Source: Candidatus Woesearchaeota archaeon
Lineage (GTDB): Archaea > Nanobdellota > Nanobdellia > Woesearchaeales > GW2011-AR9
Assembly (NCBI GenBank): GCA_016203205.1
Contig: JACQNE010000014.1
Coordinates: forward strand, 1-32,000
DNA length: 32,000 nucleotides
Direction: 5' to 3'
Part shown: piece after piece, positions 8,525-25,187 of the stretch
Layout of the letters: each line of letters begins with the position of its first letter
How positions within the stretch are numbered: the first letter of the stretch is position 1
Translations under genes and position numbers: made by a program
The notes under the pieces: model-generated
The model's input: only the letters and a program-made list of their open reading frames with translations
Told to the model about the DNA's origin: nothing
Databases searched by the model: none

Positions 8525-8730
8525 TTAAATGTTTATTGGTACGTATTGCGTTAAGTCTGTGCGGGCTTGGTCAAGATGGTCTGCCGAGCGCTGGCTTTGA
8601 GCCAGAAATTCAGAGTCTCGCTTATCTCTGAGCATAGTTCGGGAGAGAAGATGTTCTATTCTTTGGGCGAGACGAGGCAGACCGACCTGCCCAAGCACAG
8701 ACTTAATACGTATGGTTAAATGTTTATTGG
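8525..8730. repeat. 176-bp rod-like palindromic element (X2, 8540..8715) bracketed by a perfect 15-bp direct repeat TTAAATGTTTATTGG
   Basis: The direct repeats lie at 8525-8539 and 8716-8730. Nested arms are TACGTATT/AATACGTA, TTAAGTCTGTGC/GCACAGACTTAA, GGGC/GCCC, GGTCTGCC/GGCAGACC and GTCTCGC/GCGAGAC. Confidence 0.6.
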
Positions 8731-9719
8731 CTCTGGATCGCCGCTTTTTGGATCTCATCTTCATCTTCATGCTCATCGAGAATCTCTCCGACGATCTCTT
8801 CCAGAACGTCTTCTAAAGTTATGATGCCGACGATCTTATCTGATTTATTGAGGACAATGAAAATATGGACACGATTCTTTTTAAATAGATTTAAGACTTT
8901 ATCCAGCTTGTCCGCTTCCTGGATATAGAAGATTATCGGCCGCATAATCTCCCGGACAGTGAGCGGGAGGAGATATTCTTTACTGACCAGATCTTTAGTG
9001 AAAAAAATGCCGACCACTTTCTTTTCATGAGGATCATAGACGGGAATACGCGAACAGCCCTGCAGCTGAATCTCTACACGCAAAGAAGGAGTAAGACGCA
9101 TCGAAGGACGGAGGTGATAGGTATTCTTCCAGGGAGTCATCACCTGCCCAACATTTTTATCTGAAAAATGCAGGCCGCGCTGCAGCAGGGAAAATTCTTG
9201 CTCGCGGATATCCGATTTCTGAAATTTTTTCTGCTGTTCGATGAACAGAGAGAACTCTTTTTTGGTGAAGACTGCGGGAAGTTCTTTCCCCAGCATGCGA
9301 TCAAGGCCGTAGGCAATCGGCCAGGTAACTGGATAAAAGAGGTAAAAGAAAAATGAAACCAGCCAGGCAAAACGCGCGCCGAATTCTAGCGCGTGGCGGG
9401 AAAAGATCGCTTGGGGCAGGATCTCACCAAAGATGACAATCAATCCCGTAGCGGTAAGGCTGGCGATGATACCCTGAGTTAGCGAACCCAAAAAAACAGC
9501 AAGGGCAGAATTCACCGCGACATTTCCTAACAACAAAGTACACAGGAGCTGGTTTCCCCGCTTACGGAGAGGGTATACTTTCTGCGCATTTTTATTCCCC
9601 AGCTTTATTTTCCGTTGTAAGGCATAAGGTCCCAGGCTCATTAAGCCTAACGACAGGCCGGAAAATAACGCCGAAAGCCCGATCAAAAAAGTGATAATCA
9701 AGTAATTAAAGAGGACCAT
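8724..9719 (-). CDS. CNNM/CorC-type transporter (DUF21 membrane domain + CBS pair)
   Basis: 331 aa with N-terminal TM helices and the GEILPQ motif, followed by a CBS-pair region. The usual CorC_HlyC C-terminal domain is absent. Confidence 0.85.
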   Translation of the reverse strand: MVLFNYLIITFLIGLSALFSGLSLGLMSLGPYALQRKIKLGNKNAQKVYPLRKRGNQLLCTLLLGNVAVNSALAVFLGSLTQGIIASLTATGLIVIFGEILPQAIFSRHALEFGARFAWLVSFFFYLFYPVTWPIAYGLDRMLGKELPAVFTKKEFSLFIEQQKKFQKSDIREQEFSLLQRGLHFSDKNVGQVMTPWKNTYHLRPSMRLTPSLRVEIQLQGCSRIPVYDPHEKKVVGIFFTKDLVSKEYLLPLTVREIMRPIIFYIQEADKLDKVLNLFKKNRVHIFIVLNKSDKIVGIITLEDVLEEIVGEILDEHEDEDEIQKAAIQSQ

Positions 9720-9776
9720 GAGCTATTCAGTAAGATTGTATCAGGAGCAGCAGTTTATAAGATTTTGCCTAAAAAT

Positions 9777-9938
9777 TGCTTTGTAGAAAAAGTCGTCCTG
9801 GCCATTGACCGCGGCGAAAACCGGTTGTGTTGATGGTTGCGTACGAGTTATTCTCGTCGCTGGTTTTCGCACCTGTTCCTGCATATCGCTTCTCACGGTC
9901 AATCTTCAGGCCAGGCGGACGACTTTTTCTACAGAGCC
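9777..9938 (+). mobile_element. MITE-like non-autonomous element, copy A
   Basis: 162 bp. Its ends are (T)GCTTTGTAGAAAAAGTCGTCC ... GGACGACTTTTTCTACAGAGCC. It is homologous along its length to 13195..13357 (inverted) and 21172..21333. The 9-nt flanks CCTAAAAAT and ACTCAAAAG match at 6/9 positions. Confidence 0.75.
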
Positions 9939-11785: not shown

Positions 11786-12430
11786 CTATTCCTTGTGTAC
11801 TTCTCGTTTGATCAATTCAATAATCTCCGGAAACTCGGTGATCTTAAAGTGTCCTTTGATATGGTTAAAAGTAATAATGTTTGCACTCTTTAATTTCCGA
11901 CGATATTTTTTCGCATGAGATACCGGAACAACATCATCATTTTTTGAAAATAATAATGTAAGATGCGGGGAATTTCTCTCCAGCAGGGATAAGTTTGATT
12001 TAAGCTTAAATCCGCCAGCGAGATCTTCATTGGGGAGGGTATCATCAAAAGGTGGTGCAATGAGAAAAGTAGAAAGAATCTTTTTGGGAAATTTATTCTC
12101 GGAGAGATATTTCGCCAGGAAAATTCCTCCCAAAGATATTCCAATGAGGATGATATTGTTTCTTAATAAAGGAAAATGCCTTTCAAAATGAATCTTCCAA
12201 TCGATGTATTTTGCATTGTCAGGAGAGGGCATATCTGGCGTTATGATCTGAAACTTCTGTCCTAATTTCTTCTTAAGATATTCATCGCGCCAGCGTATCT
12301 TCTCTTCAATGGATATCTTTCTGGTTTTTAAAAAGTGGAGGTAATCTTTCCTGCTCTTAAACGTCATCCCACCATGAATGATCATGATTTGAACTTTCTT
12401 CATGGTAGATTTAGATCCAAATTTAGGCAC
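11786..12430 (-). CDS. alpha/beta hydrolase (YdeN/RBBP9-like serine hydrolase)
   Basis: 214 aa with the nucleophile elbow GISLGG. Conserved Asp and His candidates lie further downstream (NDDVVP, KGHF). Confidence 0.75.
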   Translation of the reverse strand: MPKFGSKSTMKKVQIMIIHGGMTFKSRKDYLHFLKTRKISIEEKIRWRDEYLKKKLGQKFQIITPDMPSPDNAKYIDWKIHFERHFPLLRNNIILIGISLGGIFLAKYLSENKFPKKILSTFLIAPPFDDTLPNEDLAGGFKLKSNLSLLERNSPHLTLLFSKNDDVVPVSHAKKYRRKLKSANIITFNHIKGHFKITEFPEIIELIKREVHKE

Positions 12431-13151
12431 TCATTTTTCTTCGCGCCGAGAAGATCATCGTGATGAAACCGAACGCGGCGAGAAGATAAGCCGAACTATA
12501 GAGAAGGTTACGGAGGATGCCGGTGACATCGATTTCTAACCCCGCTGTTGAGGAAACATAAAGGATATCCGCAATCAGGATGCCGACACTGGTGATAAAG
12601 AGCATCAACAGGCTGTTTCGGAAATGTTCTATCTTGGAATAATATAAAGGGATGATCGAACCAAAAGTGATGATCAAACAGTCGGCGAGAGGATAGAAGA
12701 ACGAGACAAAAAGATGGCCTTGACCGGTTGTAAGTTTAGCCAGATCGCTCTGCAGAAGATACAAAAGCACGGCTCCGAAAAGAACGACTCCTCCCACGAC
12801 CATCGCAACTAATTTAGATGATTCTCGATGTGTCTTATGGCAAGTCCAGGCGAAGGCAAAAAATGACAAGATCAAAGTCACCGCACCTAACGTCCAATAG
12901 ACATCGGGCATGCTGGCCGGCGGGACTTCGCCGTAAACTGTGAAAATGAGATAGTACGTTAATTCACCTAACGCATATAAAGAGTAGCCGATCACTAAAG
13001 AGAAATAGATAAAGAAAGTTTTGTCTGTAAACAAATCTTTGATCTTATTCTTGAAGAGAGTGTTGAGCATGAACAGGCCGGAGACAGCCGTAAGAAGAGC
13101 GAAGGAAACGGTCGTGAGATAGAGAACATTGCTTACCTGCTCTAACACCAT
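12423..13151 (-). CDS. multi-pass membrane protein, unknown function
   Basis: The body of the protein is a run of hydrophobic helices. I place the start at MVLEQ (13151). The 52 upstream codons in the track ORF (to 13307) read through the MITE copy B, and a TATA-like TTTATATA lies about 28 nt upstream of 13151. Confidence 0.65.
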   Translation of the reverse strand: MVLEQVSNVLYLTTVSFALLTAVSGLFMLNTLFKNKIKDLFTDKTFFIYFSLVIGYSLYALGELTYYLIFTVYGEVPPASMPDVYWTLGAVTLILSFFAFAWTCHKTHRESSKLVAMVVGGVVLFGAVLLYLLQSDLAKLTTGQGHLFVSFFYPLADCLIITFGSIIPLYYSKIEHFRNSLLMLFITSVGILIADILYVSSTAGLEIDVTGILRNLLYSSAYLLAAFGFITMIFSARRKMSA

Positions 13152-13194: not shown

Positions 13195-13357
13195 GGCACT
13201 AGTAGAAAAAGTCGTCCGCTTGGCCGGAAGATTGACCGTGAGAAGCGATTTACAGGAACAGCTGCGAAAACCAGCGATGAGAATAGCTCGTACGCAACCA
13301 TCCACACAACCGGTTTTCGCCACGGTCAATGGCCAGGAGGACTTTTTCTCCAGAGCC
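13195..13357 (-). mobile_element. MITE-like non-autonomous element, copy B (inverted relative to A and C)
   Basis: By hand alignment it is the reverse complement of copy A, with about 11 mismatches over about 150 nt. GGAAAT hexamers sit on both flanks. Confidence 0.75.
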
Positions 13358-13417
13358 GGAAATCGCTGTTTTGCCAACGCCAGAAAATAATATAAATCAG
13401 AGAAATATTATCAACCG

Positions 13418-13846
13418 ATGGATTATGCAAAGAGCGGGGAAGACCACTGGGATCCAAAGCTGAACCCCTGGCGGGCACAGGCAGGGAGCGGTGTTGTGGC
13501 GATGGACTTTTCTGGATTCTATGTCCGGCCAGAGAGTCATACGCTCGGAAGAGACGAGGCACTGCGCTACGTCGATGCCCGGGCCGCGAGACAAATAGTT
13601 GCCGCAGAGACCGAACAGATCGCTCCAGAAGAAAAACCGCCGTATGCCGACCAGAACAAATTTGCTTTAATTCATCTTCAAGGACCACAACTGCCACTTC
13701 TGGATCGAAAGCCATTTCAGAGCCTGTACGAACTAGCCCGAAGACAGATGGACAGCCTTCCGACACGGCAAGATCGGCCGCCCCTGGATAACATCGAAAG
13801 AAGAATGGCTGAGAAATGGGAAAACAGGAGAGATTCGAGATCGTAA
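13418..13846 (+). CDS. hypothetical protein (G+C-rich ORF)
   Basis: 142-aa ORF with a charged, plausible composition. TAATATAAAT ends 20 nt upstream of the ATG. A longer ORF is open on the opposite strand, so strand assignment is uncertain. Confidence 0.4.
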   Translation: MDYAKSGEDHWDPKLNPWRAQAGSGVVAMDFSGFYVRPESHTLGRDEALRYVDARAARQIVAAETEQIAPEEKPPYADQNKFALIHLQGPQLPLLDRKPFQSLYELARRQMDSLPTRQDRPPLDNIERRMAEKWENRRDSRS

Positions 13847-13871
13847 AGTATTCTGACAAAATATACAACAA

Positions 13872-13879
13872 TTTTTAAA
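13872..13879 (+). promoter_or_regulatory. TATA-box-like element upstream of valS
   Basis: TTTTTAAA ends 25 nt upstream of the ATG at 13905. Confidence 0.3.
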
Positions 13880-13904
13880 GAACTAACCTCTCTCCTCAAA
13901 ATCG

Positions 13905-16427
13905 ATGGAACTTCCACAACGCTATGATCCTAAAGAAGCAGAACCAAAGTGGCAAAAGTATTGGGAAGACCTGAAAGTCTTCAAATTTGATCCACATTCC
14001 CCAAAACCGATTTATTCTATTGATACGCCTCCACCTACTGTATCAGGAAAGATGCATCTAGGTCATGCATTTAGTTATTCTCAAGGAGATTTCATTGCTC
14101 GTTATCAACGGATGAAAGGGAATAATGTATTTTATCCGTTTGGTACGGATGATAATGGGTTGGCCACGGAAAAACTTGTTGAAAAAACGAGAAAAGTCAT
14201 TTCTAAAAAGATGGAGCGAAACGAGTTCATTAAACTATGCTTAGAAACGTTAAATGAACTACGGCCGGGATTTGTCCAAGATTGGAAACGGATAGGGATG
14301 AGTTGTGATTTCTCGATTTTCTATTCTACAATTAATGATCACTGCCGCAGAATTTCACAGAAGTCATTTGTAGATTTGTATAAAAATGGCCGTATTTACC
14401 AAAAAAAAGCCCCAATCATTTTCTGTCCAGGATGCAAAACTGCAATTGCACAAGTAGAGATGGAAGATGTAGAAAAAGATACTACTTTAAATTATATCAA
14501 AGCAAAAATCGAAACGGGAGAGTATATTATCTACGCTACGACAAGACCAGAATTACATCCCGGATGCGTAGGTATCTCTCTTGATCAAAACGGGGATTAC
14601 GTCACCGTACTACGTGAAACAGGAGAAAAATGGATTATTAGTGAGGATGCTGTAGAGAAGATGAGTAAAGCTTTCCCGATGAGCGTGTTAAAGAAGTTTA
14701 AAGGGAAAGAGCTTGTTGGAAAAAAAGTTGAAATCCCCTTCAGTCAAAAGCCCGTTCTGATTACACATGATGTTTCAGCAAAAACAGGGTATGGTTCCGG
14801 AATTGTATTTTATTGCACCTATGGTGGCTTGGATTGTGTAGAATGGATGGTACGTCATCCCGATGTTCAACCAATATTGATTATGGATGAATCAGGAGTG
14901 TATAACGAATTAAGCCCTTACAAAGGGATGAATTCGACAGAAGCACGCAAAGAGATTCTTCAGGATTTAGAGAAGAAAGGAGTGTTACTTAAGAAAGAGC
15001 CATTACACCATGTTGTTAATGTCCATGAACGTTGTGGCACTGATATTGAATATATTGCAACAAAACAATGGTTTGTGAAGTATCTTGATTTAAGAGAGAC
15101 CTTCTTAGAAGCAGGAGCGCAATTACATTGGTATCCCCCCCACATGAAAGTTCGATATGATCATTGGATTAAAGGTTTAAACTGGGATTGGTGCATATCC
15201 CGACAGCGACATTTTGGCATTCCCATACCGGTATGGTATGATGAAAAAGGGAAGGTCATTTTACCCGCTGAAGAGCAATTGCCCGTTGATCCATTAAAAG
15301 ACAAGCCTAAGAGTTACAAAGGCAAGGTTACGGCGGAAAAGGACGTATTGGATACGTGGGCAACGTCATCGATGACGCCGCAATTAGCGATAGAATTATT
15401 TGACGACGAACAGTTAAGGAAAAAATTGTTTCCGATGAGTTTGCGGCCACAAGCTCATGACATTATTACTTTTTGGCTGTTTAATACGTTAGTGAAGTCA
15501 CAACTTCACTATGGGGTTAATCCTTGGAAAGACGTCGTAATTTCAGGACATGCACAAGATCCCCACGGTAAGAAAATGTCGAAGTCGAAAGGAAATGTGA
15601 TAGAACCGCAATTGATGGTAGATAAATATTCTGCTGACGCGCTCCGCTTTTGGGCAGCAGGTTCTACACTAGGAGATGATTTACCATTTCAGGAAAAAGA
15701 TTTGGTGACCGGCCAGAAATTTGCGACAAAGTTATGGAATGCGGCGAAATTTTGTATCATGCATCTGGAAGATTTTAGAGTTGCCGAGAATCATTCCGTC
15801 ACTGAAGAGATGGATCGATGGCTGTTAAGTAAATTACAGAAAATAATGACAGAAGGTACTGAAAGTTTTGAACGCTATGAATATTCTAAGACCAAAACAA
15901 AAGTAGAGCATTTTTTCTGGCATGATTTCTGTGATCAATACCTGGAGATTGTCAAAGAGCGGTTATATAATCCTGAAGCACGCGGAGCGGCTGGGAGGAG
16001 AAGCGCGCAATATACGTTATACCACACTTTATTAACAATCTTAAAGATGATGGCACCGATCACTCCCCATATCACCGAAGAGATTTATCAGCTGTTTTTC
16101 GCCGCGAAGGAAGGAGCAAAAAGCATTCATCTCTCCGCTTGGCCGGCAGCCAACTCTCAACTGATCGACGAGCATGCTGAATTAACGGGTGACATTGCCG
16201 TCGATATCATTAGTGCTGTCCGAAAATGGAAGTCGGAACAAAAAGTGTCGCTAAAAGAGGAAATTGCAGAATTAATTGTCATCAGTGAAGAGAAAGGATT
16301 CGGCGAGATGCTTGGACAGGTCAGAGGCGATCTTCGGGCAGTACTGAACGTCAAAGAGATTGTCTCCTCTGGCGAGGCATCATTGGTATCAGAAAAGTTT
16401 GGAGTTAAGATTGGTGTACGACGGTAA
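13905..16427 (+). CDS. valS: valine--tRNA ligase (class Ia)
   Basis: 840 aa. Motifs: DTPPPTVSGKMHLGHAFSY (HIGH-type) and KMSKS (KKMSKSKGN). An editing-domain insertion is present. The length and N-terminal motif fit archaeal ValRS better than LeuRS or IleRS. Confidence 0.8.
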   Translation: MELPQRYDPKEAEPKWQKYWEDLKVFKFDPHSPKPIYSIDTPPPTVSGKMHLGHAFSYSQGDFIARYQRMKGNNVFYPFGTDDNGLATEKLVEKTRKVISKKMERNEFIKLCLETLNELRPGFVQDWKRIGMSCDFSIFYSTINDHCRRISQKSFVDLYKNGRIYQKKAPIIFCPGCKTAIAQVEMEDVEKDTTLNYIKAKIETGEYIIYATTRPELHPGCVGISLDQNGDYVTVLRETGEKWIISEDAVEKMSKAFPMSVLKKFKGKELVGKKVEIPFSQKPVLITHDVSAKTGYGSGIVFYCTYGGLDCVEWMVRHPDVQPILIMDESGVYNELSPYKGMNSTEARKEILQDLEKKGVLLKKEPLHHVVNVHERCGTDIEYIATKQWFVKYLDLRETFLEAGAQLHWYPPHMKVRYDHWIKGLNWDWCISRQRHFGIPIPVWYDEKGKVILPAEEQLPVDPLKDKPKSYKGKVTAEKDVLDTWATSSMTPQLAIELFDDEQLRKKLFPMSLRPQAHDIITFWLFNTLVKSQLHYGVNPWKDVVISGHAQDPHGKKMSKSKGNVIEPQLMVDKYSADALRFWAAGSTLGDDLPFQEKDLVTGQKFATKLWNAAKFCIMHLEDFRVAENHSVTEEMDRWLLSKLQKIMTEGTESFERYEYSKTKTKVEHFFWHDFCDQYLEIVKERLYNPEARGAAGRRSAQYTLYHTLLTILKMMAPITPHITEEIYQLFFAAKEGAKSIHLSAWPAANSQLIDEHAELTGDIAVDIISAVRKWKSEQKVSLKEEIAELIVISEEKGFGEMLGQVRGDLRAVLNVKEIVSSGEASLVSEKFGVKIGVRR

Positions 16428-17538: not shown

Positions 17539-19263
17539 ATGGCAAGTAATCTCCCAAAACCAAAAGTCATTGTTTGTGGAGCTGGTATTGGCGGCCTGAC
17601 CGTAGCCCACGAATTGGCAAAGAGAAATTTTGCGGTGACTATCTATGAACAAAACAAGATAGTTGGTGGTCTGGCCAGAAGCAGCTACCATACCAAGAAT
17701 AATCAAAAATATCCCACGGAATATTCCTGGCGGGTGTATGGTGCCAATTATAAAAATCTATTACGGTTAATCAATGAGATCCCTTTACGCAGCCGGCGGA
17801 ATAGGTCGGTATTTCATAATTTAGTCCAGGTCTGCACTTATATTTTTCCCAGATTTGGCAAAGAGGAAGTGATCATTTCCCGTGGTAAAAATAAAGGAAA
17901 GTTGATGAACAATTTTAAGACAGGCGACATCTTCAAAATAATCGACAAGATTCTTTACTGCCTGACAATGTCCACCCGCCGGGCGGATTCTCTCGATCAT
18001 ATTAAATGGAAAGATTATTGCCAAGACTTATCACCGGAAGCAAAAAAATACATGATCCAATTATGGGGGCCGGTGCTGGGCATGGACACCACCAAGATGA
18101 GTTTCCCGGTCATTGCGCGGATGGTCGGAATCCTACTTGGCGGATTGATCAATTACCCCAGCCGGCTATATCTGATGAACAAGCCGACAAATGATGGATG
18201 GTTTGACGAGTGGACAGATTATTTACAGAATACACGGAAAGTAAAGATAAAGACCGGTTACAACATCGTTGATTTTAAGATGAAAAACGGAATGATTGAT
18301 CACGTCTTTGTCAACGATCAAGAAAAAAATGAAACGACGAAAGATACTGCCGATTATTATGTCTGCGCCTTGCCGGTGGAAGCTGTCGCCGGCATCGTAT
18401 CCAAGAATCCCCAACTAGCTCAAATCTCCACCCTCCAGAATACGATCAAATTAGCCGAAAAATGCCGGCAGATACAGCTTTCCGTCCAATTATTTTTAGA
18501 TCAGGAGATCATCTATCCCAGCACAGAAAAAGTGATTTTATATCTGCCGGATACGCCTTGGTCGCTGATCATTGAACCGCAGGATCTGATCTGGGGCCGA
18601 ACTTACTGTACGGATCAAGAAGTAAAAGCCGTGCTTTCCGTGGGCATCTGCCAGACCGATAAACCCGGGATTCTGTACAACAAGCCATTCATAAAGTGTA
18701 CTAAAGATGAAATCAAAGAAGAAGTGTGGAGTCAAATCCTAAAATCCTGCCATTTTTCTAGTATTGCGATTAAAAATAAAAGAAAATTGGATAAAGCAAA
18801 CATTGTGTTTTTCTATATCTGGGACAGTTTTCAGTTTGATCGTCAGAAAAAAGAGATGGAAGTGTGGGAGCCTAAATTTAGCAACAACAGTCATTCACTC
18901 AAATATCAGCCGGATCATGCGACAGAAATTCCTAATTTTCTGTTTGCGACGGGATATACTAAAACAGACAGATACATCTACAGCATGGAGTCTGCGGCGG
19001 AAGCAGGCACGCTGTGCGCAAATGAAATTATCAGAAAGCAGAACCAAAAGTCAGGGGAATCGCTGCCTTTAACTAAAATCCATCCTTTTTCCGGATCGAC
19101 GATCATCCTGAAACCCCTGATCTTCCTTGATTCCCTCCTCTACACAATAGGTCTCCCTCATCTTAGCAAATTAACGGTTAATAGTATTTTTCTGGTGGCT
19201 GCCTATGCGCTGATCCTCCTCGGATTGCTGATCTTTTTCGCCCGACTGTTGATTGTAAAATAA
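17539..19263 (+). CDS. FAD-dependent amine-oxidase/phytoene-desaturase-family oxidoreductase with C-terminal membrane anchor
   Basis: 574 aa with the N-terminal dinucleotide-binding motif VCGAGIGGLTVAHELAKRNFAVTIYEQNKIVGGLA. The C-terminal hydrophobic helix reads IFLVAAYALILLGLLIFFARLLI. Confidence 0.8.
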   Translation: MASNLPKPKVIVCGAGIGGLTVAHELAKRNFAVTIYEQNKIVGGLARSSYHTKNNQKYPTEYSWRVYGANYKNLLRLINEIPLRSRRNRSVFHNLVQVCTYIFPRFGKEEVIISRGKNKGKLMNNFKTGDIFKIIDKILYCLTMSTRRADSLDHIKWKDYCQDLSPEAKKYMIQLWGPVLGMDTTKMSFPVIARMVGILLGGLINYPSRLYLMNKPTNDGWFDEWTDYLQNTRKVKIKTGYNIVDFKMKNGMIDHVFVNDQEKNETTKDTADYYVCALPVEAVAGIVSKNPQLAQISTLQNTIKLAEKCRQIQLSVQLFLDQEIIYPSTEKVILYLPDTPWSLIIEPQDLIWGRTYCTDQEVKAVLSVGICQTDKPGILYNKPFIKCTKDEIKEEVWSQILKSCHFSSIAIKNKRKLDKANIVFFYIWDSFQFDRQKKEMEVWEPKFSNNSHSLKYQPDHATEIPNFLFATGYTKTDRYIYSMESAAEAGTLCANEIIRKQNQKSGESLPLTKIHPFSGSTIILKPLIFLDSLLYTIGLPHLSKLTVNSIFLVAAYALILLGLLIFFARLLIVK

Positions 19264-19286
19264 AAATTCCCGAAACCAAAAAACTC

Positions 19287-20336
19287 ATGAAAAAAATCAT
19301 CATCATTGGCGGCGGATTTGCCGGAGCATACATCGCTCGGCAATTAGAATCTGAATTTGCAGTCACTCTATTTGACACCAAAGATTATTTTGAATTCACT
19401 CCTTCTGTACTAAGAACATTGGTCGAGCCAAGACATCTTCCCAAGATCGAAGTGCCGCATCAGGCCTATCTGCAGAAAGCAGTGATCGTCAGAAAACCTG
19501 TGATGGAAGTGGCCGACAATAAAGTTATTGCCGGGGGAATGGAGTATCTCTTTGATTATTTGGTGATCGCCTCAGGATCACGATATACCGTGCCGATCAA
19601 AGAAGAGAACATCGTCATCGCCGCCCGGGGGCGTGACCTACAACAATGGGCGCACCAGTTAGAAAAAGCAAAAAAAGTCTTAATCGTCGGCGGCGGAATC
19701 GTCGGTACGGAATTAGCCGCGGAGATTGTGGACAGATTTCCTGAAAAAGAAATCACGCTGGTTCATTCTAAAAAAGATCTTTTGGACCGGAATCCCCGAA
19801 AAGCCAAAGAATATGCGCGGCGTTTTCTGCAACAGCGCGGGATAAAGCTTATCTTCGAAGAAAAGGTTATTGATACGCAAAAAGAGCGCATTCCTACGGC
19901 AAAAAAATATATCACCAATAAAAGAGGAGAGATTTTCGCCGATCTGGCTTTTCTCTGTACGGGAATCGTTCCCAACTCGGAATTTCTGAAAAAAAACGAA
20001 AAGATCTCCCTTGCTGAAAGCGGCTTTGTGCAAGTAAATGCGCATCTTCAAGTCGCGAACTGTCCAAACATCTTCGCCGCGGGAGATATTACCAATATCA
20101 AAGAAGAGAAAACAGCACAGGCCGCAGAAAAGCAGGCAGAAGTAGTAATAGACAATATTCGCGCACTAGCCGCAGGAAGAAAATTACGAGAGTACGCCTC
20201 AAAAGCACGGCCGATGGTCATCAGCTTGGGAAAATGGAAAGGGATTTTAGTCTATCGCCAGTTTGTCTGGACCGGTTTTTTTCCCGGACTGCTCAAACGG
20301 CTGATCGAGTGGAAGACGATGCACAGGTATCGGTAG
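19287..20336 (+). CDS. FAD/NAD(P)-dependent pyridine nucleotide-disulfide-family oxidoreductase (NDH-2/AIF-like)
   Basis: 349 aa with two Rossmann motifs (IIGGGFAGAY and IVGGGIVGTELA) and the C-terminal FAD motif FAAGDIT. Confidence 0.85.
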   Translation: MKKIIIIGGGFAGAYIARQLESEFAVTLFDTKDYFEFTPSVLRTLVEPRHLPKIEVPHQAYLQKAVIVRKPVMEVADNKVIAGGMEYLFDYLVIASGSRYTVPIKEENIVIAARGRDLQQWAHQLEKAKKVLIVGGGIVGTELAAEIVDRFPEKEITLVHSKKDLLDRNPRKAKEYARRFLQQRGIKLIFEEKVIDTQKERIPTAKKYITNKRGEIFADLAFLCTGIVPNSEFLKKNEKISLAESGFVQVNAHLQVANCPNIFAAGDITNIKEEKTAQAAEKQAEVVIDNIRALAAGRKLREYASKARPMVISLGKWKGILVYRQFVWTGFFPGLLKRLIEWKTMHRYR

Positions 20337-20489
20337 GGGTTAAATAGAGTGGATCATAAAGTTTTGGATAAATAATCCTGTCGTTGACGATATCAGTAAA
20401 ATTATTTTTGAGCGTCATCAAGAGACTAAGAACTTTGGCAAACCCTTCTTTTCCGAAACATTCTTTAACCTTAAGATCATCACTCTTCC

Positions 20490-21203
20490 ATGCGTAAGCA
20501 AAGGCTGGGCGGGATCAAGGCCGTTGGCTTCGATTTTGATGGGACGCTGATCGTCTCCGAAGAGCAGAAAGCAAAAGCAATGGCCGAGATCTTCCGCGAA
20601 CAATTCGGCATCAAAAAAGGAGTGGAAAAAGCCTATGCCTCACTTGTCGGCTCAGCATCGAACCGCCACCAAAAAGTCAATAGTCTTTTTCAGAAGCTGC
20701 TCCATCGCACCCCTACGGTCCGTGAACGGCAATCCGTGGCGAGGGAATTTGGGAAGCATTACCAACGCCACATGAAGATGTGTCCATTGTTTCAGTGCAG
20801 CAATCTCATCAAAGAATTGCGTAAACAAGTCTCTTTTTTGTTTCTGCTTTCCTTGGAAAATAAAAAAGAAGTGACTGCCATCGCACAGCACTGCGGCGTG
20901 GCAAAGCATTTTGATGAGATTCTTGGCGGACCGAAACCGAAGGTAGAAAACTTGCTCCATATCATTAAGAAGCATAAACTAAAGCCCCATCAAGTCCTCT
21001 ACATCGGCGACGCACATTCCGATGTTATTGCCAGCAAGAAAATGAATGTGCGGGTCGTTCTTCTGGGTAAGAAGCACACATACGAACGGCTGAAAGAAGA
21101 CTTGGCAGCAGATTTTGTCTTTAGCTCTTTATGTGATGTGCCAAAAGTTTTTTCTACAATGATACTTGACCGGCTCCGTAGAAAAAGTCATCCTGGCCAT
21201 TGA
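20490..21203 (+). CDS. HAD-superfamily hydrolase (phosphatase-like), C-terminus rewritten by MITE insertion
   Basis: HAD motif I FDFDGTL and motif IV-like GDAHSDV are present. The last 10 codons and the stop (LRRKSHPGH*) lie inside MITE copy C. Confidence 0.8.
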   Translation: MRKQRLGGIKAVGFDFDGTLIVSEEQKAKAMAEIFREQFGIKKGVEKAYASLVGSASNRHQKVNSLFQKLLHRTPTVRERQSVAREFGKHYQRHMKMCPLFQCSNLIKELRKQVSFLFLLSLENKKEVTAIAQHCGVAKHFDEILGGPKPKVENLLHIIKKHKLKPHQVLYIGDAHSDVIASKKMNVRVVLLGKKHTYERLKEDLAADFVFSSLCDVPKVFSTMILDRLRRKSHPGH

Positions 21204-21333
21204 CCGTGGCGAAAACCGGCGCTGTTTCTGATTGCAGATGAGCTATTCCAGTCGCTGGTTTTCGCACCTGTTCCCGTAAATCGTTTCTCACGGTCAATCT
21301 TCAGGCCAAGCAGACGACTTTTTCTACAGAGCC
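21172..21333 (+). mobile_element. MITE-like non-autonomous element, copy C, with perfect 9-bp target-site duplication
   Basis: The ends are GGCTCCGTAGAAAAAGTCATCC ... AGACGACTTTTTCTACAGAGCC. TACTTGACC is present at 21163-21171 and again at 21334-21342. Confidence 0.85.
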
Positions 21334-21392
21334 TACTTGACCGTAATACATAAAAAGGAGAAATCCTTCCTTCCCTAAAAAGAGGTGTGAAC

Positions 21393-21533
21393 ATGGCACT
21401 ATGCAAATGCTTGATGTGCGGCAAGAATTCTTTCCATTATACCTATAAAGGAAAGTGTACCGGCTGTGGCGCCGGCGTGATGACCGCATCGCAAGCGAAA
21501 GCAAAGAAAGCGAAAATGAAAAAAAGGAGATAG
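21393..21533 (+). CDS. small zinc-ribbon protein (46 aa) with Lys-rich tail
   Basis: Translates as MALCKCLMCGKNSFHYTYKGKCTGCGAGVMTASQAKAKKAKMKKRR, with CxCxxC...CxxC. GAGGTG lies 6-7 nt upstream and a T-rich tract follows. It falls below the ORF-track length cut-off. Confidence 0.5.
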   Translation: MALCKCLMCGKNSFHYTYKGKCTGCGAGVMTASQAKAKKAKMKKRR

Positions 21534-22667: not shown

Positions 22668-25187
22668 ATGCTGGAAAGATTAGTCGAACGTTTTACAAGA
22701 AGAACATCCCGCCTATTTTTAGCGTTAGCTTTGACAGCGGGATGCCATTATGGGCCAAACCTCCCCTCTTCTGGCTATGCGGAAGGAGACACGACCCAAT
22801 TATACGATGCAACAAGTGATTCTACACAGGATGCATCTGCCGAGGACGGCCAATCGGACGACGGAATTGACACGGGGGGGAGAGGGTACAATGTTGTGAT
22901 CCCGTCTTCCCTCTTGGATATTCACATTCTTTCCCTTTTTGATACACAAGAAGATGACTCTGGAGAAACCAATGTTTCGCCAGGTTATGATCCAGAGAAT
23001 TGCCCCGACGGGAATAAAAATACCTGGTGTGCTGACCGGGATGGTGATGGCTTTGGCAACAAGAGCGAGAACAAATTCGATTGTTTTCCACCACCGGGTG
23101 AAGTTAAATATACAAAGAATTGCGGTGACTGTAACGATAAGAAAGAAATAAATAAGTTTGGTGTGTATGGCGCTGACGTGTATCCCGGCGCGGTGGAACT
23201 GTGCAACTTAGTCGATGATGATTGTGATGGCAAGACTGATGAGGATCTTCTTGAAAAATGCTCCACCGACTGCGGACCGGGCTACAACGAGTGCATTAGC
23301 GGCCAGTGGGTCTGCGATGCACCTCTGCCGACAGCAGAGATCTGTGATGGGTACGATAATGATTGCAATAACATTATTGACGACAGCTTTCCGATAACGG
23401 AAGAACAATGCGGCCCACAGGACGAAGAAGGCAATTATATTACAGTAGGAGTCTGCAAGCCCGGTGTTAGTGTAACTTATTGCGATTCCCTTGCCGGTAA
23501 GATGACTACCACTGCTTGTGATGCTTTTTTTCCGCAAGGGGAGATCTGCGATAATTACGACAATGATTGCGACGGCAAAACAGATGAAGATTTTATGGTT
23601 GGCGAACTTTGTTATGTTGGTATCGGCGAATGCGTCAATAAAGGGCAGTTTGAATGTCTATCTGACCTAGTGCAGGTGTACTGCGATGCGATGCCCAAAG
23701 ACTCCGGCGAAGAGATCTGCGATGGGAAAGACAATGATTGTGACGGGCAGACGGATGAATATGAAGATATTGCCCCTCAGCTGGAATCGATCGAAGAACT
23801 ATGCGCTTCGGCGTGCGGAAGTGGAGACTGGCTTTGCATCGACGGACAGATCTCTTGCAGTGCGCCTCTTCCGAAAGAAGAGATCTGCAACGGGTATGAC
23901 GATGATTGCGATAAAGTCATCGACAATGGATATAATGTCGGCCAGCCCTGCACCTTGGGAGCTGGCGCGTGTATGGACATCGGCGAGATGGTCTGCACGC
24001 CCAGTGGATTGAGCACGATCTGCAACGCCGCACCGGGGAAACCAGAACCAGAATCATGTGATGGCGTCGATAACGATTGTGATCTGTATATCGACGAACT
24101 CCCGGACATTCAGTTTCAGCTGGATCAGGTTTTTGCAGAAAACGGCATCTGCCAGACCGACTGCGGACCAGGCGAATATATTTGTTTCCAAGGGAGCATC
24201 GCGTGCAACGCTCCAGAACCCGGTATTGAAGTATGCAACGGCCTGGACGATGATTGTGACGGGCTGATAGACGAAGATTATGTGCAGATGGGCTTAGGAA
24301 AACCTTGCGAAGTAGGCATCGGAGCATGTTATGATAAAGGGAATTATGTCTGTACCAAAGATGGTAAAAGTATTGTCTGCAATGCCGTTGAAGGCCAGCC
24401 GCTGGAAGAGATGTGCAACGATCACGTCGATAATGACTGCGACGGCCTGGTTGATGAGGATTGCTGTGATGACGCCGAGCCGATCAAAGATATTGTTCCC
24501 TGTAAAGAACTTGTTCTTTATTTCAAGATAGATGATACGGGCAGTATGGCTGGGGCGATCTATCAAGCTGGTCAGCTTTCAAAGGAGATTGGCACAACTA
24601 TTTTCTCATCTGTTGATAAGGTCAATTTTGGATTAGGAACATTTAAAGACACAGAAGGAGAACAGATAGAGTATGGTCTTCTGCCTTATGACGAATGGAA
24701 AGTTATTGTTCAAAGTATTAAAGTAAGTGGAGGCGGTGACGCTCCTGAATCTTCTCTCAATTCGCTCTACGAGATGCTGGGACAGGATTGGGCTGACGCC
24801 GTGGGAGTTTCTGGACCTGATAAAGTAAGTATCTATGCCATCCATATGACTGATGCTGCCTGGCATAAAGATGGAGATGGGACCAGCTACTCGACGGGAT
24901 TAACGATTTCTGGTACTGCTCAAGAATTTGTTGCAGAAAAGATAAATTACATTGGGATTAGTTTTTCCAGTACCGATTATGGCCTTGCGGATATGGCTCT
25001 GTTTGAAAGCAAGTATCCAGAGGGTAGCAAACCAACTGCGTCGATGTATAAGTTTTACAACTCTTCTTCAACTTCAACTCTGGCGGGAATCGTTGCTGCG
25101 GAAATCATGGAGAACGAACCGCTGCAATCTTGGACGCAGTGTATCGATGGAAAATATGTACAGAAGAATGGCATCTGTGAGCAGTGA
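22668..25187 (+). CDS. secreted/lipobox-like cysteine-rich repeat protein with C-terminal vWA-like domain
   Basis: 839 aa with a signal-like N-terminus LFLALALTAGC. Eight C-x-x-x-D-[ND]-D-C-[DN]-x-x-x-D motifs are present. The C-terminal segment YFKIDDTGSMAG...HMTDAAWH resembles a vWA MIDAS. Confidence 0.85.
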   Translation: MLERLVERFTRRTSRLFLALALTAGCHYGPNLPSSGYAEGDTTQLYDATSDSTQDASAEDGQSDDGIDTGGRGYNVVIPSSLLDIHILSLFDTQEDDSGETNVSPGYDPENCPDGNKNTWCADRDGDGFGNKSENKFDCFPPPGEVKYTKNCGDCNDKKEINKFGVYGADVYPGAVELCNLVDDDCDGKTDEDLLEKCSTDCGPGYNECISGQWVCDAPLPTAEICDGYDNDCNNIIDDSFPITEEQCGPQDEEGNYITVGVCKPGVSVTYCDSLAGKMTTTACDAFFPQGEICDNYDNDCDGKTDEDFMVGELCYVGIGECVNKGQFECLSDLVQVYCDAMPKDSGEEICDGKDNDCDGQTDEYEDIAPQLESIEELCASACGSGDWLCIDGQISCSAPLPKEEICNGYDDDCDKVIDNGYNVGQPCTLGAGACMDIGEMVCTPSGLSTICNAAPGKPEPESCDGVDNDCDLYIDELPDIQFQLDQVFAENGICQTDCGPGEYICFQGSIACNAPEPGIEVCNGLDDDCDGLIDEDYVQMGLGKPCEVGIGACYDKGNYVCTKDGKSIVCNAVEGQPLEEMCNDHVDNDCDGLVDEDCCDDAEPIKDIVPCKELVLYFKIDDTGSMAGAIYQAGQLSKEIGTTIFSSVDKVNFGLGTFKDTEGEQIEYGLLPYDEWKVIVQSIKVSGGGDAPESSLNSLYEMLGQDWADAVGVSGPDKVSIYAIHMTDAAWHKDGDGTSYSTGLTISGTAQEFVAEKINYIGISFSSTDYGLADMALFESKYPEGSKPTASMYKFYNSSSTSTLAGIVAAEIMENEPLQSWTQCIDGKYVQKNGICEQ
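23028..24461 (+). repeat. in-frame coding repeats (Cys/Asp-rich modules, about 113-120-aa super-repeats)
   Basis: Super-repeat boundaries fall at about 23259, 23763 and 24102. Module A reads C(S/A/Q)(T/S)(D/A)CG(P/S)G...C...(P)LP...E(I/V)C. Module B reads G(E/Q/K)(L/P)C..G.G.C...G...C...........C. Each module ends in a DNDCD motif. Confidence 0.8.

Follow-up and report, generated by a model that had tools for sequence, protein, structure and literature searches.

A MITE with a 9-bp target-site duplication at the 3' end of a HAD hydrolase gene in a woesearchaeote, and the placement of its family beside BRE/TATA motifs

The DNA considered here, referred to throughout as the window, is a 32-kb stretch from a Candidatus Woesearchaeota archaeon. 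On its forward strand, positions 20490-21203 hold a gene for a HAD-family hydrolase which in its current form encodes 237 amino acids and is identical to NCBI MBI4152405.1 (Candidatus Woesearchaeota archaeon). The protein matches Pfam HAD_2 (PF13419) with E = 2.5e-20 and 73.8 bits against a cut-off of 23.8, and it contains the catalytic FDFDGT of HAD motif I (DxDGT) together with every column that is invariant among its aligned homologues. The reading frame ends in ...TMILDRLRRKSHPGH*, with a TGA at 21201-21203. Its codons from 21172 onward and this stop derive from a MITE, copy C (21172-21333, + strand), a 162-bp element without coding capacity of its own that aligns with two further copies in the window, A and B, and has an nhmmer score of 184.7. 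Downstream lies a 46-aa ORF of the CxxC...CxxC type (21393-21533, + strand; NCBI hypothetical HY495_01735), with GAGGTG 6 nt upstream of its ATG; no homologues of this orphan were found. Farther along, an 839-aa ORF (22668-25187, + strand) contains a Cys/Asp-rich repeat (...C-D/N-G-x-D-N-D-C-D-G-x-x-D-E...) six or more times, visible in the DNA as 51-nt direct repeats.

Copy C is bounded by terminal inverted repeats of 18-21 bp. The left repeat, GGCTCCGTAGAAAAAGTCATC (21172-21192, + strand), has an IS6-like tip when set against the inverted repeat of IS6100, and the right repeat is GACGACTTTTTCTACAGAGCC (21313-21333, + strand); comparing GGCTCCGTAGAAAAAGTC with the reverse complement of GACTTTTTCTACAGAGCC gives 19 of 21 bases complementary. 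Immediately outside them stand two copies of the 9-mer TACTTGACC, the left one within HAD codons (21163-21171, + strand) and the right one just past the element (21334-21342, + strand), an arrangement whose coordinates and sequences the first-pass annotation had given correctly. The 9-mer occurs exactly twice in the 32-kb window, abutting both ends of the element, where 0.12 occurrences are expected by chance, and identical 9-bp flanks would arise by chance with a probability of 4^-9, or ~4e-6. Each 9-mer is followed on its 3' side by a G (21172 and 21343), which makes the literal repeat 10 bp long. The G at 21172 opens the GG tip of the element and so belongs to it, and other copies have exactly 9 bp; the duplication is therefore scored as 9 bp rather than 10.

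Deleting 21172-21342 produces ...ACA ATG ATA CTT GAC CGT AAT ACA TAA, or ...TMILDRNT*, and the reconstructed empty site reads ...TTCTACAATGATACTTGACCGTAATACATAAAAAGG.... This reconstruction confirms the proposal that removing the element and one duplicate restores an ending in ...ILDRNT*, just as translation confirms that the present gene ends inside the element at 21201-21203, with its last codons and stop supplied by it. The insertion point falls at the fifth- to third-last codons of the HAD gene. From there the HAD frame runs 10 codons into copy C, adding nine element-encoded residues (LRRKSHPGH) before the element's TGA. The ancestral tail would be VFSTMILDRNT and the present one is VFSTMILDRLRRKSHPGH; the orphaned remnant of the ancestral 3' end (cGT AAT ACA TAA) would, by this reconstruction, now lie downstream of the element at 21343-21353 (+ strand). 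The assertion that the MITE had replaced the C-terminus holds insofar as the tail was altered by the element. It is overstated in that just two residues (Asn-Thr) were lost and nine gained, in an unconserved tail past the last conserved HAD column. In an alignment of 19 homologues (61-70% identity), conservation stops at ...LCDVPK and the tails beyond it, 0-16 residues long, are unrelated; none ends in ...LRRKSHPGH, as might be seen if that ending had predated the insertion. A functional consequence appears unlikely and the change probably neutral, given that the tail is not part of the conserved HAD fold. In its three frames the element presents stop codons within 2, 9 or 19 codons of the left end and 2, 10 or 47 of the right, and thus any ORF that enters it is soon closed.

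Two independent Logan assemblies, SRR12113383 and SRR12113384, contain the left junction of copy C with 100% identity. Their contigs (L001 and L002), which come from the source samples and cover window positions 18809-21220, both end 49 nt inside copy C, as contigs tend to do on entering a repeat, and show that this family breaks up short-read assemblies of the organism. Such breakage, together with a right junction seen in the window contig only, is what one would point to if the 9-mer repeat and the HAD read-in were an assembly artefact, arising either from mis-assembly of the repeat or from a chimera that joined two different MITE copies. That origin is exceedingly improbable. A chimera of unrelated copies would not yield identical 9-mers on both sides (chance ~4e-6, as above), the HAD frame is completed, with a stop codon, by the sequence that follows the right 9-mer, and the left junction is the same in both independent assemblies. 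The alternative, a genuine and clean insertion footprint of a MITE with a 9-bp target-site duplication, as originally proposed, is borne out by the flanks, by the inverted repeats and by the duplications around other copies.

Those other copies begin within the window itself. Copy A occupies 9777-9938 on the + strand and copy B 13195-13357 on the - strand; A, B and C are mutually 86-92% identical over the element, and their flanks are unrelated. The duplication of copy A is degenerate (CCTAAAAAT / ACTCAAAAG, 6/9), and so is that of copy B, with a shared core ATTTCC. A scan of one genome per prokaryotic species returned nine further copies, all in the Woesearchaeota MAG RIFCSPLOWO2_01_FULL_44_20 (Rifle groundwater), and a metagenome scan found additional ones on Ga0209541 and Ga0209542 contigs and revealed a sister family. 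The total is 36 non-redundant sites in related Woesearchaeota, 21 of family 1 and 15 of family 2; nearly all of the sister copies trace to Rifle groundwater, to one woesearchaeote or a few related ones, a narrow taxonomic sample for a targeting rule. Family 2, represented by copies in the fetched loci L009 (5975-6127) and L011 (3191-3346) and also in L065, L078, L088, L075 and others, is ~152 bp long with the terminal repeat GGCTCTGTMRAAAATCTCNAAAAAGTCAGCC. It has its termini and 9-bp duplication in common with family 1 and a different interior.

Perfect 9-bp duplications flank 11 of the 36 sites and 10 more match at 8/9, so that 21 of 36 stand at 8/9 or better. The perfect ones, GGAAAGACA, GAAAGCAAC, CAATACACC, TTTCCGTTC, CAATGAAGA, GGTGATTTG, GCCCCATTC, CGCTTCGTC, TCTTCGATC, GGTGCTTCT and TACTTGACC, are all different. 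Because they differ from site to site, the 9-mer is target DNA that was duplicated, and the family as a rule duplicates 9 bp. Were the 9-mer instead a part of the element, it should accompany the other copies, whereas A, B and more than 30 elsewhere are flanked differently and the 11 perfect duplications are each their own. Copy C is a MITE, a non-autonomous DDE-type transposon, in every structural respect apart from a known autonomous partner: it is short (162 bp) and encodes no transposase, with stop codons in all six frames; its 21-nt arms are complementary at 19 of 21 positions and the same ends recur in all copies; its target duplication is fixed in length and variable in sequence; and its copies are many and dispersed, with three in the window and 36 sites overall.

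Several observations concern the surroundings of these copies. A third element of ~88 bp, with two hairpins, terminal repeats TAGTAAnTGTG and a TA duplication, an IS630/mariner-like signature, is nested in copies of both MITE families (L026 9513-9600, L036 6866-6954 and L116 352-438), and a more divergent insert of the same type occurs at L049 5273-5365. In the window, a 181-aa ORF (13326-13871, - strand; ...LWRKSPPGH) was considered as a second gene clipped by copy B and rejected as probably spurious. It runs antisense to a better-supported 142-aa ORF (13418-13846, + strand), which has 52-56% G+C against ~42% around it and a TATA box, AATATAAAT (13390-13398), ~25 nt before its ATG; neither Pfam nor Rfam has a match to this 142-aa ORF. 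In L025, the 125-aa ORF running into the MITE copy also appears spurious. An RNase P RNA at 13400-13880, considered from a GAAAAGTCC-like motif, was dropped with no covariance-model match, and an E-value search of 13300-13950 against Rfam gave one chance-level hit only.

The first-pass annotation had taken the clean footprint to date the insertion as recent, and this is not established. Copy C does have the best-kept duplication and terminal repeats among the three copies in the window. Its identity to the family consensus is only 84.7%, none of the other copies seen comes closer to it than 87%, and a 9-bp duplication is too short for dating. Across the family, how well a duplication is preserved does not go with how close the copy is to the consensus, and divergence is therefore mostly a matter of different source copies. 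Neither an empty site nor an ancestral allele occurs in the databases searched. The predicted ancestral protein of 230 aa is absent from a collection of 15 billion proteins, the HAD protein is a cluster of one, and its closest homologue is 70% identical. Database look-ups of two proteins encoded downstream of the HAD gene found nothing. In the relatives L121 and L122 the upstream synteny is kept, and downstream stands a different, convergent gene.

The ends of the family offer a hint of its parentage. They read GGCTCTGTAGAAAA...TTTTCTACAGAGCC, and the terminal repeat consensus GGCTCTGTAGAAAA agrees with the IS6100 inverted repeat GGCTCTGTTGCAAA (PMC10470526) at 12 of 14 positions, the deviations being t>A and c>A. 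The repeat also displays the GG tip, cTGTt and caaa that PMC7986276 gives as IS6 hallmarks. According to the same source, IS6 elements generate 8-bp target duplications, as against the consistent 9 bp here. An autonomous partner might be enclosed by two terminal repeats 0.4-4 kb apart, and no such pairs were found in the window or in ~1 Mb of fetched loci; apparently solitary terminal repeats, considered as partner ends, turned out to be degenerate MITE ends. Two scans of viral contigs for a partner gave chance matches in coding DNA or nothing, and tblastn with an approximate IS26 transposase query gave no match in the ~1 Mb of fetched loci. The terminal sequences suggest an IS6-family-like parent, with IS6 the closest family, unproven as parent.

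What the earlier reading missed is the reason for the position of copy C, namely that the family inserts beside TATA boxes. At 31 of the 36 sites, an 8-mer matching TTTAWAWA at 7/8 or better starts 4-8 bp beyond the 9-bp target; among the intergenic positions of these loci, the share with such a box is only 6.4% (binomial P ~3e-32). The gap between target and TATA, over 35 scored sites, is 6 bp in 24, 5 bp in six, 7 bp in two, 8 bp in two and 4 bp in one. A matrix anchored on the TATA box reads R-A-A-A-M-W followed by TTTAWAWA, in which the hexamer is the archaeal BRE, and the target lies flush with the outer edge of this motif. Read outward from the target, example promoter sides run GAAACC TTTAAATA, ACAAAA TTTATAAA and AAAAGC TTTATAAA. 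The last bases of the duplication are biased as well: of the 36 sites, 22 carry C at -7 and 21 carry A at -9. Some 30 nt past the TATA box there is a start codon or, in two cases, a tRNA gene. As a control, promoters of long ORFs in the same loci carry the same box 27-33 nt upstream of the ATG; because they share the motif, the boxes next to the MITEs are normal promoters, mostly of leaderless genes. The two copies at tRNA gene promoters, located at the BRE/TATA edge in L005 (~355-400) and L026 (~9900, minus strand), imply that targeting is not confined to protein-coding genes.

The elements can have either end towards the promoter. The end that faces the promoter is the right one at 23 sites, the left one at 11 and both at two, with a modest bias of 16:5 in family 1 and none in family 2; a strict rule in which the right end always faces the promoter was rejected once more copies had brought in the left-facing cases. 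In L009, a family-2 copy has landed directly against the end of a family-1 copy, with GCCCCATTC as its duplication, and one promoter-edge site serves both. On the non-promoter side, GATTGTGC or the palindrome GCACAATC...GATTGTGC recurs just beyond the duplication in the flanks of L004, L025, L105 and L060; this motif could reflect an additional target preference or be a small repeat in its own right.

The window's own copies can be read against this pattern. The left end of copy A lies 6 bp from the TATA box CTTATAAA (9754-9761, minus strand) in the promoter of gene 8724-9719, and the right end of copy B lies 5 bp from TTTATATA (13181-13174, minus strand) in the promoter of a membrane-protein gene (12423-13151). 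Beyond the right duplication of copy C, a BRE-like hexamer GTAATA and a TATA-like box CATAAAAA together occupy 21343-21356 (+ strand), the box itself at 21349-21356 and 6 bp from the duplication. The target therefore reads ...ACC, then GTAATA, then CATAAAAA, with consensus bases at -9, -8, -7, -6, -4, -3 and -1. The box is a weak match, 6/8 to TTTAWAWA, with the ATG of the next ORF (21393) 44 nt downstream; a promoter at CATAAAAA driving the 46-aa orphan ORF is thus predicted from motifs that include this weak 6/8 box. As judged by these matches, copies A and B obey the spacing rule of the family and copy C fits it weakly. The ancestral HAD stop TAA (21351-21353) falls inside the TATA-like box. 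At copy C, the recognised site would be the TATA-like box of the downstream small ORF, and an insertion at the usual position 6 bp upstream would clip the last HAD codons. Copy C would then have struck the HAD gene because the HAD stop overlapped the next TATA-like box.

Proximity to TATA boxes could also be a matter of survival rather than targeting, if insertion were near-random and tolerated just between the end of an upstream gene and the next promoter. The genomes in question are compact, with intergenic spacers often <100 bp, insertions into BRE/TATA or coding DNA would be deleterious, and the far-side spacer is at most 5 bp in ~10 of 32 sites, all of which would suit such a filter. The spacing is nevertheless too sharp for it, with the modal 6 bp in 24/35 sites and 4-8 bp in 35/35. 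On the non-promoter side, moreover, the non-coding DNA left unused has a median length of 34.5 bp and reaches ~500 bp, and the joint probability of this under uniform placement is ~1e-28. The base preferences at -7 and -9, furthermore, lie inside the duplication. Survival by itself is an unlikely explanation, and from the positions of the copies we conclude that target choice is tied to BRE/TATA, since selection alone cannot give a spacing so sharp. Purifying selection, which removes insertions within genes and promoters, surely contributes to the pattern.

A different way to account for the promoter-side position is to regard the element as a module maintained by the host, such as a structured RNA, a terminator or insulator, or a palindrome bound by a regulator, whose location reflects its function. 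Copy C folds as a full-length hairpin of -42.9 kcal/mol (z = -8.55). The arms are near-invariant between copies and the centre is variable, the unpaired segment GCACCTGTTCC is conserved, the element always sits just upstream of a promoter, and on either strand the long hairpin is followed by T5, oligo-T being an archaeal termination signal; in copy C a T5 tract occupies 21319-21323. Each of these properties could be expected of a functional module. Set against them, transposition is proven by the target-site duplications, and the binding sites of a transposase explain the conservation of the arms equally well. Across 16 copies, moreover, none of 35 predicted pairs shows a compensatory change, and Rfam at gathering thresholds has no matches in the whole window, findings on which the element was rejected as a structured RNA. 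The element is a conserved palindrome, structured RNA being not demonstrated, and a host-maintained module is a very unlikely reading beside that of a mobile element with a preferred target. Within the palindrome, window positions 21265-21290, GCACCTGTTCC(n)ATCGCTTCTCAC, are unpaired in the predicted hairpin and nearly invariant in all family-1 copies, while the centre varies freely; this segment may be a site of protein binding.

Taken together, the locus is probably best explained jointly by a MITE insertion at a 9-bp staggered cut that clipped the end of the HAD gene and by the targeting of the family to the BRE/TATA edge, with an IS6-like parent suggested; in this combined form we hold the explanation with good confidence. 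As for how the target might be chosen, the mobilising transposase would read either the BRE/TATA sequence or the bent TBP-TFB-DNA complex, and would cut one helical turn upstream of it. Such a scheme would amount to a DPANN DDE transposase guided by the basal machinery (TBP-TFB at BRE/TATA) or by the motif itself, inserting one helical turn upstream of the TATA box as a prokaryotic counterpart of TFIIIB-guided Ty3-type integration. Drawn as it is from the positions of the copies, this last step is tentative, and we regard it as possible rather than probable.

As a single event, the insertion of copy C is textbook and ordinary, and it adds no more than a new MITE family for a group of archaea that has been little studied. 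Of greater interest is the rule that holds across the family, insertion at the outer edge of BRE/TATA with a precision of ~1 bp. If the archaeal core promoter is the point from which a transposase or its partners gauge distance, this would represent a new mode of target selection for prokaryotic DNA transposons. It would also explain how mobile DNA persists in the very compact genomes of DPANN archaea without killing genes, and MITE copies would then mark active promoters, providing a way to map promoters in uncultured archaea from sequence alone.

Fusions between MITEs and host ORFs are documented for the Rickettsia RPEs, ERIC, BOX and QMITE (PMC10969869), and a Halobacterium MITE at bop swaps a few terminal residues of Bop (PMC7002104). 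Copy C resembles all of these in being a short palindrome with inverted repeats and a target duplication that gives codons to a host gene. It differs from the ORF-fusing MITEs in that two codons are clipped at the 3' terminus and the element provides the stop, as opposed to an internal in-frame insertion, and in that the host is a DPANN archaeon. No description of a MITE in DPANN archaea was found in the literature searched, the coverage of which was incomplete. The MITEs of Sulfolobus, Halobacterium and Haloquadratum (PMC10969869) are, like the family described here, non-autonomous derivatives of insertion sequences and mostly intergenic; the literature searched contains no report of a fixed BRE/TATA spacing for them. 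The IS6 family (IS26, IS6100 and the archaeal ISPfu/ISH) is common in archaea and has MITE derivatives (PMC7986276), and it shares the GG tip, the CTGT core and the A-rich run with the present family. It is set apart by its 8-bp duplication, as opposed to 9 bp, and neither an IS6 transposase nor a full-length partner was found in the fetched loci. Targeting of the TATA/BRE edge by IS6 receives no mention in the passages that a term search of PMC7986276 returned. In the literature searched, again with incomplete coverage, no transposon of archaea or bacteria is reported to choose the BRE/TATA edge as its target.

Parallels for such placement come from eukaryotes. Integration at a fixed position on the promoter side is known for Ty3 and Ty1 at Pol III genes, Dictyostelium TRE5-A, S. 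pombe Tf1, plant Mutator and mPing, among which Mutator also makes a 9-bp duplication. Ty3 targeting uses TFIIIB (TBP and Brf1), and Brf1 is homologous to archaeal TFB. Like these eukaryotic elements, the woesearchaeal MITEs are found at a defined distance upstream of the core promoter and avoid coding DNA. Those eukaryotic systems are mostly retroelements or eukaryotic DNA transposons with known tethers, whereas here the element is a MITE of prokaryotic type, recognised by a positional signature alone, for which the DNA sequence or TBP/TFB would be the candidate tethers.
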